Source: an uncultured delta proteobacterium (lineage in GTDB: Bacteria; Myxococcota_A; Polyangia; Haliangiales; Haliangiaceae). From it: a stretch of 64,000 nt of DNA. The notes beneath the pieces are model-generated. The model worked only from the letters and a program-made list of their open reading frames with translations, had not been told where the DNA came from and ran no database searches. The position numbers were made by a program, and so were the translations under genes. Location: NCBI GenBank assembly GCA_963772655.1, contig CAVYYE010000003.1, forward strand, positions 2,545,341 to 2,609,340, in the 5' to 3' direction. Positions 25,814 through 32,164 of the stretch are shown here, in pieces (within the stretch, counting starts at the first letter, position 1; every line of letters begins with the position of its first letter).

Positions 25814-27733
25814 TCAGGGCGAGACCTTGCGCGGATCGAAGCCTTGGTTGAGGCAGATCTGCGCGTACGACAGCGGCAGGCCCTTGAAGTAGATCTTGGC
25901 CTTGGCGAAGTTTCGGGACTTGCAGGCGACCAGATAAGCCTTCTGCTTCACGTTCTTGCACCGCATGATCTTCTCGTAGCCCACGAGTGCCTGGGCGTAC
26001 CGGCCGGCCGTGTTGTCCGCATCGGCGGCGGCCTCGATCGCGCCGGCGCCCGCGCACGGGTCCGGCGGCGGCGTGTTCTTCACGCAGTGATTGTTCTCGC
26101 AGTGCGTGCCCGACGAGCAGTTGGCGCACGGATTGGCGGCCACGGGCTCGCGCGGGGTGCACTTCACCTTGTCCCGCGCCTTGTCCGCGGCGATGCGGCC
26201 GTAGGCGTGCTCGAGCTGGTTGAGCTGCTGCTGGTAGCCCCCCCTGCAGTCGTGCTTGCGCGCGTAGGCTCTGAGCTGGGGGAGTGCCGTACGGACCAGG
26301 GTGTCGAGGCCCTGCTTGTACTGATCGCTCGCCTCGCTCCGATAGATCGAATCGTCGGGGATGTCCTTGAGCTTCTCGGTGGCGTCCTTGAAATCGCCCT
26401 TCTTGAGATCCTCCGTGAGCTTCCGCAAGGCGACCTCGGCCTTGCTCTCGGACGTCGCGCGCTCGATCAGCTCTTTCCCGTGCGAGTCACCGGCGGCATC
26501 GAGATCGTGACCGCACTGCTGGAGCTCCGTCCACGCCTTCTTGTCCTTGAGCTCGGCGCACCGGGTGGCGATCGCCGTGACGTCCGGCCCGGCGGCGTCC
26601 TCGGTCGCGTTGACCTCGGCAGCGTCGATCAGCGGAGGCACGCTCGCACCGGCATCTTCGGTCGGGTTGACCGCGAGGTTGCCGCCGCTGGCGGTCCCCA
26701 CGCCACCGCCGGATTCCTTGTCGCCTCCACCGCCCTTGAGCACGAACGCGACGATCACGGCGCCGACGACGAGCACGAACAGAAGGCCGATGACCATGCC
26801 CTTCTTGCTACCGCCGGTCTCCGGGACGTCGGTGATCACCGCGTCGCGCGAGAACACGAAGTCCTCGCCGGGCTCGATGAACCGCAGCCGGACGTGGCCG
26901 AGATCGACGACGTCACCGCGCCGGAGCTCGACCTTGCCGTAGTCGTTCCCGTTGACGCGAACGCCGTTGGACGATTGCAGGTCGCTGATCGTGTAGCGGC
27001 CGGTGTCGGGCTCGCGCACCAGCTTGGCGTGGTTGCGGCTGATCGACCGGTGGTTGATGACGATGTCGTTCTCGTCCGTGCGCCCGACGATCATCTGCGG
27101 GCGCGACAGCTCGAACTCCTTGCCCGCGAAGTTCGAGGACACGACGACGAGCTTGCCGTACCCGGCGGTCTGCGGAATCGCCGCGGCGATGTGCTCGGGA
27201 CGCGCGAGCGGGCGGCCGTCCTCGCCGGTATCCGCGACCGCGACCATCGTGCGGTTGGGATTGGCGCCGACGATCTGGACGCCGGGAACCTGACCGGGAG
27301 GAGGCGTCGGCGTGGTAGCGCCGGCTACCGACTGGACGGGGACGGGCTGGGTCGGCGCCGGAGCCACCGCGGGGATCACGTCGGTCGCCGCGCCATCGAC
27401 GCGCTCGATCGGCATCGTCCGAGCCTCGTCGACCTGCTCGACGCCCTCGGCCTTGAGATACAGCTTGTAGTCGCCGATCTGGACCTGGTCGCTGACGCGC
27501 AGGCTGACGCGCTCGGCGATCCGGGCGTTGTTGACGCGGATGCCGTTGTAGCTGCCCAGGTCCTCGATCTGGACCTCGCCGTTGTTGCGCACGATCCGGG
27601 CGTGACGGCGAGACACGTTCCGCTCGGTCAGGCGGATCGTGTTGCCCTCCTTGCGGCCTATCGTGATCTCGTCACGGATTAGAGGGACGACCGTAGTCTT
27701 TCCCTCGTCATCCTGGATCACCAGCTTGAACAT
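25814..27733 (-). CDS. Tandem-FHA-domain membrane protein with an extracytoplasmic Cys-rich C-terminus
   Basis: Two FHA domains, ITIGRKEGNTIRL..SRRHARI and MIVGRTDENDIVINHRSISRNHAKL. Transmembrane segment MVIGLLFVLVVGAVIVAFVL. The C-terminal domain has several Cys pairs, CANCSSGTHCENNHC. Confidence 0.85.
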   Translation of the reverse strand: MFKLVIQDDEGKTTVVPLIRDEITIGRKEGNTIRLTERNVSRRHARIVRNNGEVQIEDLGSYNGIRVNNARIAERVSLRVSDQVQIGDYKLYLKAEGVEQVDEARTMPIERVDGAATDVIPAVAPAPTQPVPVQSVAGATTPTPPPGQVPGVQIVGANPNRTMVAVADTGEDGRPLARPEHIAAAIPQTAGYGKLVVVSSNFAGKEFELSRPQMIVGRTDENDIVINHRSISRNHAKLVREPDTGRYTISDLQSSNGVRVNGNDYGKVELRRGDVVDLGHVRLRFIEPGEDFVFSRDAVITDVPETGGSKKGMVIGLLFVLVVGAVIVAFVLKGGGGDKESGGGVGTASGGNLAVNPTEDAGASVPPLIDAAEVNATEDAAGPDVTAIATRCAELKDKKAWTELQQCGHDLDAAGDSHGKELIERATSESKAEVALRKLTEDLKKGDFKDATEKLKDIPDDSIYRSEASDQYKQGLDTLVRTALPQLRAYARKHDCRGGYQQQLNQLEHAYGRIAADKARDKVKCTPREPVAANPCANCSSGTHCENNHCVKNTPPPDPCAGAGAIEAAADADNTAGRYAQALVGYEKIMRCKNVKQKAYLVACKSRNFAKAKIYFKGLPLSYAQICLNQGFDPRKVSP

Positions 27734-27837
27734 CCGGTTGCGCCTCTGCTCGTCTCGTTAGCGGAGAAAACCCAACGTGTTAACGGTTGTACCAGTCCAA
27801 GCTCGAGCAAAACAACTGCACGCCAGCATCTTGGGGA

Positions 27838-29133
27838 CTACTTGCCACCAGTGCGCAACGACGCGCGGGCAAGCTTTACAGCGGTGGCGAGTTGTGGATC
27901 GTCGTCGTCCTCGTTGCTGTCGTCGGAACGAATTGTGGCATCACTTCCCGTCGTCCCGCCACTACCACCACCACCCCCGACGACGATCTCTTCGGCAGCG
28001 AACTCGTCGACCGGGACATCCGGGCGAAGACCCTTTGATTCCAGCGAGTTGCCATTCGGCGTGTAGTATCGGGCCGTGGTCAGTTTGAGCCCCGCACCGC
28101 CCACGAGATCGAAGAACGTCTGAACGGTGCCTTTTCCGAACGTACGCGTGCCGACGAGCTTCGCCCGTCCGTGATCGCGGAGGGCCCCGGCGAGGATCTC
28201 CGAGGCGGATGCGGTGCCGTGATCGACGAGCACGAACACCGGCACGCCCGTCGCCGGTCCACCCGCATGCGCGGACTGTCGCTCGACGGAACCCTGCCGC
28301 CCGCGGATCGTCACGATGGTTCCGCGATCGAGGAACAGGTCGGCGACCGCGATCGATTGATCGACGAGCCCCCCGGGGTCCGCGCGCAGATCGAGGATCA
28401 GCGTATCGAGCGCCCCGCCGTGCTTGAGCTTCCCGAGCGCCGCCGCGGCGTCGATCGATGTCGCCTCCGAGAACCGCGTGATCTTGAGATAGCCGATGTG
28501 GGGCTCGAGCACGCGATGGGTCACCGTCGGCAGCTTGACCTGGGCGCGCACGATCGTGAACGACCGCGGCTTCTTCCAACCCGCGCGAAGGACGGCGATC
28601 TCGATCCGCGTTCCCGAAGCACCGCGCAGCCGTGCTTCCCAGGTGGTCGCGTTGGCCGTCTCCTTGCCCGGCTTGCCGGGGGTGTTCTCTGCCGTCGGGA
28701 TTCCACTCACGGACACCACGCGATCGTCGAGCTGGAGACCGGCCATGTCGGCGGGTGAACGCGGCACCACCGTGTCGATCGTCGGATACGGAGGGAGTCC
28801 CGGCCGCGCGTCGTCGATCGTGCCCGGCGACAGCGTGATGCCGATGCCGCCGAACTCGCCCTCGGTGTCCTGCCGCAGGTTCTTGTAGCGGCGCGGCGGC
28901 AGGAACGTCGAGTACCGATCGAGGTTGTGAAGCATGCCGCGCGCGGCGTTGTAGATCAGCTGTTTCTCGTCGACGGGATCGACGTAGCTGGTCTGCACGG
29001 TCGCGAGCGCCTGCGCGAACGCGTCGAGGGTCTGGAACCGTTCGACGTCGCGACGGGGCGTACTCCACGCCGCGAACGCACCGGCGATGGTGACCCCGGC
29101 AACGAACGCGGCGGCGTGCGATGCTCTCGACAA
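27838..29133 (-). CDS. ctpA: C-terminal processing (tail-specific) S41 family protease
   Basis: PDZ segment, TRTFGKGTVQ and VLVDHGTASASEILAGAL. The Ser/Lys dyad context is present. Confidence 0.9.
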   Translation of the reverse strand: MSRASHAAAFVAGVTIAGAFAAWSTPRRDVERFQTLDAFAQALATVQTSYVDPVDEKQLIYNAARGMLHNLDRYSTFLPPRRYKNLRQDTEGEFGGIGITLSPGTIDDARPGLPPYPTIDTVVPRSPADMAGLQLDDRVVSVSGIPTAENTPGKPGKETANATTWEARLRGASGTRIEIAVLRAGWKKPRSFTIVRAQVKLPTVTHRVLEPHIGYLKITRFSEATSIDAAAALGKLKHGGALDTLILDLRADPGGLVDQSIAVADLFLDRGTIVTIRGRQGSVERQSAHAGGPATGVPVFVLVDHGTASASEILAGALRDHGRAKLVGTRTFGKGTVQTFFDLVGGAGLKLTTARYYTPNGNSLESKGLRPDVPVDEFAAEEIVVGGGGGSGGTTGSDATIRSDDSNEDDDDPQLATAVKLARASLRTGGK

Positions 29134-31338: not shown

Positions 31339-31345
31339 CTCGTTC

Positions 31346-32164
31346 TCAGCCTCCGCTCGCCGCGAGGGACGGTGGAAACGGAACCACGTTGGACGGCAAC
31401 GGCGCCGACTCGAAGCTGCCGGTCACCTCCTCGTCGATCACGCTGTCGATCGCACCGGAGTCGACGAGCGACTCGGTCAACCGGAACAACGAACCGTCGA
31501 CCAGACCGTAGCGGCTCCAGTGGTGACGCTCCGCGAGGGACAAGAGTGCGGGATCGCGACCGAGCACGAGACACGCCGCGCCGCGCGCCGCGGCGATCGC
31601 GATCGCCGTGCACACCAGCTCGGTACCGTGGGCGTCTTGCAGGCTGGTCGGATGATCCGCGATCACCAACTCGGGCTCGCGGACCATCGCGCGTGCGACT
31701 GCGACGCGCTGGCGTTCCGCGGCCGACATCCGCGCGACCGGCATCGCGGCCTGGTGTTCGTCGAGACCGAGCTGCGAGAGCACCTGGTGCGCACGCGCCA
31801 TCGAGATCTCGCGCGGTATGCCGTCGATCTCGAGCGGCAGCACGACGTTGAGCTCGGCGCTGCGATCGTCGAGCAGACACAGGTCCTGCGGCACGATCCC
31901 GATGCGGCGCCGGATCAGGCGTAGCGACGAACGCCGGAGGCGACCGACGTCGCGACCCAGGATCGCGATGCGTCCGGTGCCGAGGGTGACCTCCCCCAGT
32001 GCCGCCGCGACGAGGCGCGAGGTTCCGACACCCGCCGCGCCGACGATCAGCGCGACCTCGCCGGCGCCGAGCCCGAGGTTGGCGCCACCGATCAGCGGAG
32101 CCCCTCCTCGCGGGTGATCCAGCGTGACATCGACCATCTCGATCACGTGTTGTGTCCCGCTCAT
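31346..32164 (-). CDS. ftsE: Cell-division ABC transporter ATP-binding protein FtsE, with a C-terminal extension of about 50 aa
   Basis: Walker A GAAGVGTS, ABC signature MSAAERQRVAVARA and Walker B LVIADHPTS. I moved the start to ATG 32164, because the upstream extension has poor composition. Confidence 0.9.
   Translation of the reverse strand: MSGTQHVIEMVDVTLDHPRGGAPLIGGANLGLGAGEVALIVGAAGVGTSRLVAAALGEVTLGTGRIAILGRDVGRLRRSSLRLIRRRIGIVPQDLCLLDDRSAELNVVLPLEIDGIPREISMARAHQVLSQLGLDEHQAAMPVARMSAAERQRVAVARAMVREPELVIADHPTSLQDAHGTELVCTAIAIAAARGAACLVLGRDPALLSLAERHHWSRYGLVDGSLFRLTESLVDSGAIDSVIDEEVTGSFESAPLPSNVVPFPPSLAASGG

Follow-up and report, generated by a model that had tools for sequence, protein, structure and literature searches.

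The DNA considered here, a stretch of 64,000 nucleotides from an uncultured Kofleriaceae/Haliangiales lineage of the Myxococcota (further called the window; G+C content ~68–70%), contains a cluster of division and envelope genes built around ftsE and ftsX. A preliminary description, made from the sequence alone, had listed ftsE, a 62-amino-acid open reading frame (ORF), ftsX, an M23 peptidase gene, ctpA, the gene of a membrane protein with two FHA domains, and an OmpA gene. The ORF list and the family scans bear out this gene list, and all genes of the cluster lie on the minus strand at the coordinates assigned to them there:

31346..32164, minus strand: ftsE-like gene (Pfam ABC_tran, 77 bits; best NCBIfam family FtsE, TIGR02673)
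31150..31338, minus strand: orf62, the 62-amino-acid ORF, which matches no Pfam or NCBIfam family
30230..31153, minus strand: ftsX (FtsX_ECD, PF18075, 48.8 bits)
29146..30225, minus strand: M23/LytM gene (Peptidase_M23, PF01551, 51.8 bits)
27838..29133, minus strand: gene of a ctpA-type S41 protease (Peptidase_S41, PF03572, 178 bits, and PDZ_6)
27771..27815, minus strand: conserved non-coding element in the gap between ctpA and the FHA gene, as seen when the upstream regions from 18 loci are aligned
25814..27733, minus strand: gene of a two-FHA membrane protein of 639 amino acids (FHA, PF00498, 114.8 bits, two stretches)
23808..25718, minus strand: gene of an OmpA-domain protein (OmpA, 84 bits, and acidic repeats)

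As read from the sequence, 7 bp separate ftsE from orf62, a GTGA overlap joins orf62 and ftsX, and 12 bp lie between the M23 gene and ctpA. Gaps of ~100 bp are found ahead of the FHA gene and ahead of the OmpA gene.

The FtsE-like protein of the cluster (further called the window FtsE) has a degenerate ATP site. Its Walker A motif reads GAAGVGTSR where GxxGxGK(S/T) is expected, with Thr in place of Lys, and its Walker B motif reads IADHPTS where Asp-Glu is expected, with His in place of the catalytic Glu. At the position of the switch His (LGRD), Arg is found, the signature MSAAERQR has lost the glycines of LSGGQ, and, as judged by eye, the aromatic residue of the A-loop is also changed. The site still has its P-loop glycines, Q-loop Gln, Walker B Asp, and signature Ser. 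These motifs were called against an E. coli FtsE reference and then rechecked on HMMER alignments to solved ABC domains, which give the same correspondences. The same replacements within the ATP site occur in all 120 of the 120 closest homologues (60–78% identity); the exact GAAGVGTSR is present in 109 of them, and ADHPTS is the reading in every Walker B variant listed. The homologues with a source name are labelled as metagenome-assembled genomes (MAGs) of Kofleriaceae, Deltaproteobacteria or Proteobacteria. Since the replacement residues are themselves invariant, the ATP site appears to have been remodelled under selection and to be still functional, not decaying. Since the Walker A Lys, the catalytic Glu, the switch His, and the signature glycines are all replaced, an ATP-hydrolysis cycle of the known type is very unlikely, and the window FtsE is predicted to be a pseudo-ATPase. 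The score against the FtsE equivalog TIGR02673 is 126.8 bits, below the cut-off of 264.85. In the AlphaFold2 (AF2) model of the protein, with a predicted local distance difference test score (pLDDT) of 85, the fold is intact and the last 29 residues are disordered. The protein has the ABC nucleotide-binding fold of the type VII MacB/LolD/FtsE group; the top Foldseek matches of the model include the nucleotide-binding domain of MacB, and the best match by template modelling score (TM) and root-mean-square deviation is E. coli FtsE from the FtsEX-EnvC complex (8hd0_A; TM 0.93, 1.9 Å). The disordered tail contains an NVVPFP motif (31373..31390, minus strand, residues 259–264), and an NV(V/L)PFP tail is kept across the wider FtsE-like subfamily, including members with canonical motifs. 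Because it is disordered in the model, this tail looks like a short linear docking motif for a putative partner. A review on FtsEX lists the ATPase motifs among the features of FtsE and mentions no natural degenerate form (PMC11627006), and in the literature no earlier account was found of FtsEX in Myxococcus or Myxococcota, of a degenerate FtsE, or of FHA proteins together with FtsEX. The loss of the catalytic ATPase residues from the window FtsE, like the conservation of the 62-amino-acid gene that goes along with this loss (presented below), was overlooked in the preliminary description.

The neighbourhood of ftsE was followed in a scan of a genome collection that gave 72 loci of the degenerate clade, all in Kofleriaceae, Haliangiales or unclassified myxobacterial MAGs, with the counts for each gene restricted to loci with enough flanking sequence. 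Downstream of ftsE, FtsX is encoded in 59 of 59 loci, with nothing but the small ORF in between, the M23 protein in 54 of 54, CtpA in 48 of 49, the FHA protein in 45 of 46, and the OmpA protein in 41 of 43; wherever all six genes are present, they are collinear in the order ftsE-ftsX-M23-ctpA-FHA-OmpA (44/44 loci). The contexts of six distant relatives (L081 and L083–L087) were also compared with the window by tblastn, and in five of these lineages (L081, L083, L084, L085, and L087) the FHA and OmpA genes follow ftsEX-M23. Neighbourhood conservation, to which the preliminary description had pointed as a check, is thus found both for the order of the cluster and for the two-FHA protein as a conserved neighbour. 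The protease gene behaves differently. It is absent from L081, L084, L085, L086, and L087, and in all of these but L086 the FHA and OmpA genes come directly after the M23 gene. Insertions of 0.7–3.7 kb part the M23 gene from ctpA in L023, L038, L046, L054, and L055; those of L038 (12534..15944) and L055 (2747..6493), of 3.4–3.7 kb, carry genes on the opposite strand, and ctpA and the FHA gene stay together beyond them. We read ftsE-(orf)-ftsX-M23 as the core of the cluster, FHA-OmpA as its frequent and ancient companion, and ctpA as a gene that joined in the lineage in which FtsE degenerated.

Homologues of orf62 were found by tblastn in most of the 72 related loci. The 49 copies that were extracted are all intact and 60–85 amino acids long, and 47 of them begin with ATG or GTG. 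The start of the gene often overlaps the ftsE stop codon (ATGA), and its stop abuts or overlaps the start of ftsX (0–6 bp before it). The protein has a conserved basic N-terminus (MKMRTLRRL..APR..RR), a conserved core (FD(L/V)(S/T)DATxEPxPGPxPExVFDRxTGP(F/Y/W)), and a near-invariant C-terminal DEET; indels stay in frame and fall between the conserved blocks, so that both ends are kept. Diverged copies were detected with a hidden Markov model in L062, L067, and L070, and in L060 and L064 a further diverged ORF with a ..SGPFG core was recognized by eye. No known family was found for orf62 in Pfam and NCBIfam with the window sequence, in Pfam with 20 members, or in a profile search of the PDB, all of which returned only noise. 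The protein contains no transmembrane segment. It was also considered whether orf62 might be the N-terminus of FtsX in another frame. This was rejected, as there is no upstream start in the FtsX frame and the orf62 termini are conserved across the in-frame indels. The ORF is therefore a real conserved gene with a cytoplasmic product, translationally coupled to both ftsE and ftsX. All loci with a Lys-lost FtsE whose ftsE-ftsX junction was examined, L083 included, contain it, and it is absent in four of the five sister loci with canonical Walker motifs, where the junction is too short to hold it (L081, 57 bp; L084, -4 bp; L085, 73 bp; L086, 58 bp).

The degenerate site was also placed within the wider FtsE-like subfamily. 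An exhaustive search of 1.84 billion cluster representatives returned 62 at E <= 1e-30. When single-domain matches are aligned, the subfamily is marked by the C-terminal NV(V/L)PFP tail and by the missing switch His; with the NVVPFP tail, it was met in uncultured lineages only. Its members form a graded series, from canonical GxxGxGK(S/T) with DEPT, through loss of the Lys with DQPT, to GAAGVGTSR with DHPT. Walker A and B are both canonical in P0265, P0270, P0274, P0302, and P0295, the Lys-lost form with Asp-Gln is found in P0242, P0244, P0247–P0259, and P0391 (the last of which belongs to the P0248 cluster), and the form with Thr and His is the Kofleriaceae form of FtsE. The canonical member P0270 is 40% identical to Ruegeria FtsE (124 bits), about as close as it is to the degenerate clade. 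Among the six distant loci, FtsE is intermediate in L083, in which the flanks are as in the window, and canonical in the other five. The flanks of L084 are window-like, with a TonB receptor and a lipoprotein upstream and FHA, OmpA, and IndA downstream; L085 has different flanks; in L081, L085, and L087, the FHA and OmpA genes follow ftsEX-M23, and L087 has a 60-amino-acid ORF between ftsE and ftsX; L086 has ftsE-ftsX-M23 only. The presence of a canonical FtsE within the same flanks in L084 indicates that the degenerate FtsE is the positional orthologue of a canonical-Walker FtsE.

The products of the two following genes point to a derivative of the FtsEX-EnvC system. In FtsX, the periplasmic domain FtsX_ECD, placed between the first two membrane segments, is matched over residues 73–166 at more than twice the Pfam cut-off of 23.5 bits, and four hydrophobic segments are visible in the sequence. 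The FtsX equivalog TIGR00439 gives 97 bits (cut-off 255), and PF02687 gives a weak match to the window protein (8.8 bits, E 2.2); the FtsX homologues of L081, L085, and L087 carry PF02687 on record. The M23 gene more likely starts at the ATG at 30060 than at the annotated start, and its product combines a signal peptide and a helical region with an M23 domain that is catalytically degenerate. At the active site, RRG(L/I)D is found for HxxxD, AKL or GKL for the catalytic His, and RVYxE for HxH (RRGLD, AKL, and RVYLE in the window), and these degenerate motifs are conserved in 45 Kofleriaceae loci and in the six distant loci of the alignment. A profile built from 21 members of the family matches EnvC chains first in the PDB (8i6o_E, 1.5e-12, then 8tzk_E, 6tpi_A, and 8hd0_E). 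It aligns to EnvC residues 165–413 of 8hd0_E and 133–380 of 6tpi_A and so reaches part of the helical region, which is shorter here than in EnvC. The score against the EnvC equivalog NF008644 is 16.1 bits (cut-off 270). By its motifs and its profile matches, the M23 protein is classed as a degenerate LytM factor of EnvC type. The preliminary description had seen the FtsEX-EnvC-amidase logic reproduced in one operon. FtsEX with a degenerate EnvC-like LytM factor stands, but the amidase does not, as Pfam and NCBIfam scans show no amidase gene among the annotated genes of the cluster, the rest of the window being only partly annotated.

The S41 protease scores 263.9 bits against TIGR00225, above the cut-off of 218.6, and 246 bits against the narrower CtpA model NF045588, in which the cut-off of 625 is not reached. 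It has the motifs TASASE and FGKG, which hold the catalytic Ser and Lys, and is a C-terminal processing protease of CtpA type, predicted to be active. The FHA protein agrees with what had been described before, a two-FHA membrane protein with a Cys-rich ectodomain: its two FHA domains are followed by one transmembrane segment and 12 Cys. FHA domains bind phosphothreonine (pThr) through Gly-Arg, Ser-x-x-His, and Asn-Gly. These residues are nearly invariant in 48 homologues, as GR, SRRH, and NG in domain 1 and GR, SRNH, and NG in domain 2. Across the same homologues, the FHA regions are >90% invariant and the periplasmic part is 27–42% identical with eight invariant Cys; the FHA domains are still 61–84% identical where FtsE is only 32–49% identical. 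The AF2 model of the periplasmic part (pLDDT 87) shows helical repeats and a small Cys hairpin, and Foldseek against the PDB returned nothing significant for it, the best matches being TPR proteins (E 0.17). The best NCBIfam family for the FHA domains is FhaB_Rv0019c (112 bits, under the cut-off of 125), and the GltG equivalog gives 45 bits (cut-off 650). The protein is bitopic: both FHA domains are cytoplasmic, and a single transmembrane helix joins them to an all-helical, Cys-rich periplasmic domain. Between the two FHA domains, the linker (up to residue 194) varies, apart from a near-invariant ARTMPIER (27394..27417, minus strand, residues 106–113) and a DT(D/G)..GRP motif. A Thr with an Ile at +3 (pT-x-x-I type), as in ARTMPIER, is a pattern typical of FHA ligands; ARTMPIER and DT(D/G)..GRP are both candidate phospho-sites for self- or cross-binding.

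Ahead of the FHA gene, the element of ~45 nucleotides at 27771..27815 has TTGTTTTG..GAGCTTGGACTGGTACAACC..GTTGG kept in most of the 18 aligned loci. It resembles a promoter (TTGTTT-N18-TACAAC), and a scan for consensus promoters did not flag it; it could be an internal promoter or the binding site of a regulator. The OmpA protein, an outer-membrane protein, contains an N-terminal barrel-like region, acidic D-x-D-x-D-G repeats of the calcium type, and a C-terminal peptidoglycan-binding OmpA domain. It is 57–84% identical across loci and is always encoded after the FHA gene. In the label OmpA-TSP3, given to it in the preliminary description, the first part is confirmed by the OmpA domain, but the Pfam TSP_3 match is weak (E 0.27), although the D-rich repeats are plain by eye. 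TraB (NF033763) matches it partially, with 191 bits under a cut-off of 700. Directly after the OmpA gene lies a small gene of 96 amino acids (23471..23761, minus strand), with a G+C content of 0.94 at third codon positions and an N-terminal hydrophobic segment; no family match was found for it, and most loci have a homologue at the same, conserved position.

Taken together, these data are best explained if the region is a conserved Kofleriaceae/Haliangiales division-envelope cluster, an FtsEX-EnvC derivative with a remodelled FtsE and a small partner gene, to which we give a probability of roughly 0.6. In the mechanism proposed for it, the periplasmic domain of FtsX would hold a LytM factor that cannot itself cut peptidoglycan and which, by analogy with EnvC, may activate hydrolases encoded elsewhere. 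FtsE would keep the ABC fold without being able to cycle ATP, and the small protein, possibly with the two-FHA protein, would supply the on/off input that ATP turnover gives in canonical FtsEX. The regulatory inputs would then be the small protein, proteolysis by CtpA, and perhaps the FHA protein reading pThr set by some kinase. It is further proposed that the S41 protease, the FHA protein, and an OmpA-type outer-membrane tether may form a second, separable module, which probably joins cytoplasmic phospho-Thr signals to attachment of the outer membrane and to the control of wall hydrolases by proteolysis. A bolder form of this proposal, in which the Kofleriaceae FtsEX-EnvC system runs without ATP hydrolysis, the FtsE site now binds the 60-residue protein, possibly in a pThr-dependent manner via FHA, and septal hydrolysis is gated by binding or phosphorylation, is speculative and is considered unlikely as a whole.

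Several observations weigh against the cluster being such a division system. The loss of ATPase activity is a prediction from motifs, and the FtsE, FtsX, and M23 proteins all score under their NCBIfam equivalog cut-offs. The 60-amino-acid ORF at the place of orf62 in L087, which has canonical Walker motifs and in which homology is doubtful (E 0.06), means that the correlation between the small ORF and Lys loss is not clean. L086 has no FHA gene, and L070 keeps ftsE-orf-ftsX-M23 with unrelated genes downstream and no ctpA, FHA or OmpA gene. Given the promoter-like element, transcription of the FHA and OmpA genes may begin separately. Within the family, conserved synteny takes in a TonB receptor, a lipoprotein, a short-chain dehydrogenase, and the small gene after OmpA as well; because it reaches such unrelated genes, adjacency within the family is weak evidence for function, and more can be learned from the exceptions and from the distant loci. 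The cluster could also be a paralogue and not the division FtsEX, a point taken up below.

The kinase gene on the other side of ftsE (32280..35090, minus strand; Pkinase, 128 bits, and TPR repeats) was the basis of an earlier suggestion that phospho-Thr, set by this kinase and read by the FHA protein, controls septal hydrolysis. According to this model, the adjacent kinase-TPR protein phosphorylates a target of the two-FHA protein and thereby controls the FtsEX-EnvC system. The pThr-binding residues kept in both FHA domains are in line with it, as is the FHA gene that neighbours ftsEX-M23 even in distant lineages, and the kinase stop codon lies 115 bp upstream of the ftsE ATG on the same strand. 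However, a tblastn search of the 72 related loci found a kinase homologue directly upstream of ftsE in none of the 55 with at least 3.5 kb of upstream sequence. The slot is variable; in L001 (9189..9905), L070 (9182..9907), and L083 (9167..9907), it holds a divergently transcribed gene, on the minus strand of the locus, for a collagen-type protein of ~240 amino acids with GPP repeats. In the window, a cobalamin riboswitch (RF00174 in Rfam, 60 bits; 38439..38630, minus strand) precedes genes for a TonB-dependent receptor (36247..38385, minus strand) and a 374-amino-acid protein without an assigned role (35113..36237, minus strand), and the whole looks like an operon for B12 uptake. Its last stop codon is 22 bp away from the start of the kinase gene, which may be transcribed with this operon instead of with ftsE. 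A hairpin with a U6 run separates the kinase gene from ftsE. This is weak evidence, as the intergenic RNA does not fold exceptionally well (z = -1.5) and terminator-like sites are no more numerous than in shuffled sequences. Another Ser/Thr kinase-TPR gene lies 5 kb away (40230..42404, plus strand). The window also contains a gene for a 1621-amino-acid hybrid histidine kinase with five HAMP domains, GAF, HisKA/HATPase, and a receiver (50684..55549, minus strand) and genes for two sigma-54 activators (44196..45485 and 62583..63971). In a window so dense in signalling genes, a kinase beside any given gene is unsurprising. The linkage of this kinase to ftsE is thus not borne out, its adjacency is best read as incidental and the kinase as no part of the system, and control of FtsEX-EnvC by it is highly improbable; a role for the FHA protein in the cluster is plausible.

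The FHA, OmpA, and CtpA proteins might instead belong to an envelope module that is independent of ftsEX, simply syntenic with it, and acts as a trans-envelope tether or as a transmembrane CtpA adaptor, as in LbcA-CtpA or NlpI-Prc. The FHA and OmpA genes are always adjacent, ctpA-FHA-OmpA stay joined in the five loci where insertions part M23 from ctpA, L070 has ftsEX-M23 without them, and the promoter-like element stands ahead of the FHA gene. The FHA protein has helical repeats in its periplasmic domain, for which the weak best matches are TPR proteins, and TPR adaptors direct both CtpA and Prc (PMC12772221). On the other hand, nothing significant came out of the fold search with this domain (best E 0.17), the linkage to ftsEX-M23 outlasts the change of flanks in L085, and the FHA and OmpA genes stand directly after M23 in the four loci without ctpA mentioned above, which means that the FHA protein cannot be only a CtpA adaptor. 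The independent module is therefore possible but rather unlikely. It is doubtful, too, that the cluster is an FtsEX-like paralogue with another job, for example in spore or envelope remodelling, with a canonical ATP-driven FtsEX encoded elsewhere for division. This would fit the scores of all three core proteins, far under the FtsE, FtsX, and EnvC equivalog cut-offs, and the small size of the NVVPFP-tail subfamily (the 62 representatives), restricted to uncultured lineages. Yet the canonical Walker FtsE of L084 at the same chromosomal position fits the in-place decay of an orthologue, and P0270 stands about equally close to the degenerate clade and to a bona fide FtsE, that of Ruegeria. No second Kofleriaceae-labelled FtsE-like protein occurs among the named matches, which is weak evidence, as no genome-wide search was made. 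The window FtsE could, finally, keep a nucleotide cycle, either by slow hydrolysis of ATP or GTP or through a composite site with a canonical subunit encoded elsewhere, as in heterodimeric ABC exporters. The retained P-loop glycines, Q-loop Gln, Walker B Asp, and signature Ser, as well as the high conservation of the whole site, speak for this, and degenerate sites that bind ATP without hydrolysing it are well known (PMC7756269). However, five elements of the site are altered together, counting the A-loop aromatic residue (judged by eye) along with the Walker A Lys, catalytic Glu, switch His, and signature glycines. What the window FtsE would offer to a partner's site is a signature motif that is itself degenerate, and the cluster has no second nucleotide-binding gene. 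A retained cycle is thus quite improbable.

If the cluster is an FtsEX-EnvC derivative with a remodelled FtsE, it bears on the question of what the ATPase is for. In current models, FtsEX is a transmitter in which the ATPase activity of FtsE conveys the signal through the membrane to the hydrolase activator of the periplasm (PMC11627006). A whole family that has FtsX and an EnvC-like activator with an FtsE devoid of catalytic residues is a natural experiment on this purpose, and the small protein is a concrete candidate for the replacement input. The graded series of canonical, E-to-Q type, and fully remodelled FtsE forms allows a comparison in vitro, and, through the conserved pairing with the two-FHA protein, it can be tested in a Gram-negative lineage whether envelope remodelling is linked to Ser/Thr phospho-signalling. 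Should these genomes encode a canonical FtsEX at another place, the cluster would be a specialised pseudo-ABC paralogue and of narrower interest.

Compared with the FtsEX-EnvC systems of E. coli (8hd0), P. aeruginosa (8i6o), and V. cholerae (8tzk), the cluster shares the ftsE-ftsX order, the periplasmic domain of FtsX, and an EnvC-like partner in which a helical region is combined with a LytM domain that is catalytically dead. The fold of its FtsE can be superposed on that of E. coli FtsE (TM 0.93), and EnvC chains are the first matches of the M23 profile. The cluster differs in that its FtsE is devoid of the Walker A Lys, the catalytic Glu, the switch His, and the LSGGQ glycines, that an additional gene of 60 amino acids lies between ftsE and ftsX, that the EnvC-like protein has ~300 amino acids, whereas the E. 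coli EnvC chain 8hd0_E has 419 residues, and that the M23 gene is placed within the ftsEX operon and followed by the S41, FHA, and OmpA genes. With the degenerate sites of heterodimeric ABC proteins (TM287/288 and NBD1, the first nucleotide-binding domain of CFTR), the window FtsE shares non-consensus residues in Walker B, switch, and signature, with the fold and the site kept. In those proteins, such residues abolish hydrolysis (PMC7756269, PMC5216877). However, TM287/288 and CFTR keep one competent site on the partner domain, whereas the only nucleotide-binding gene of this operon is degenerate; should the window FtsE be a homodimer like FtsE, neither of its two sites would work. The S41 protease beside an M23 protein resembles LbcA-CtpA of P. 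aeruginosa and NlpI-Prc of E. coli, and here, too, a nearby protein with a helical-repeat periplasmic domain is a candidate adaptor. It shows no significant fold match to LbcA or NlpI, and, in contrast to those outer-membrane TPR lipoproteins, it is placed in the inner membrane with two cytoplasmic FHA domains; the sister loci also keep the FHA gene without CtpA. In actinobacteria, the membrane-associated FHA proteins FhaB/FipA (Rv0019c) and FhaA are tied to division and wall synthesis, and FhaB_Rv0019c is the best family for the FHA domains described here (112 bits, cut-off 125). Unlike FhaB/FipA and FhaA, the protein of the cluster combines two FHA domains with a large disulfide-rich periplasmic domain, and its gene sits with ftsEX instead of in an operon with kinase, phosphatase, and RodA genes.

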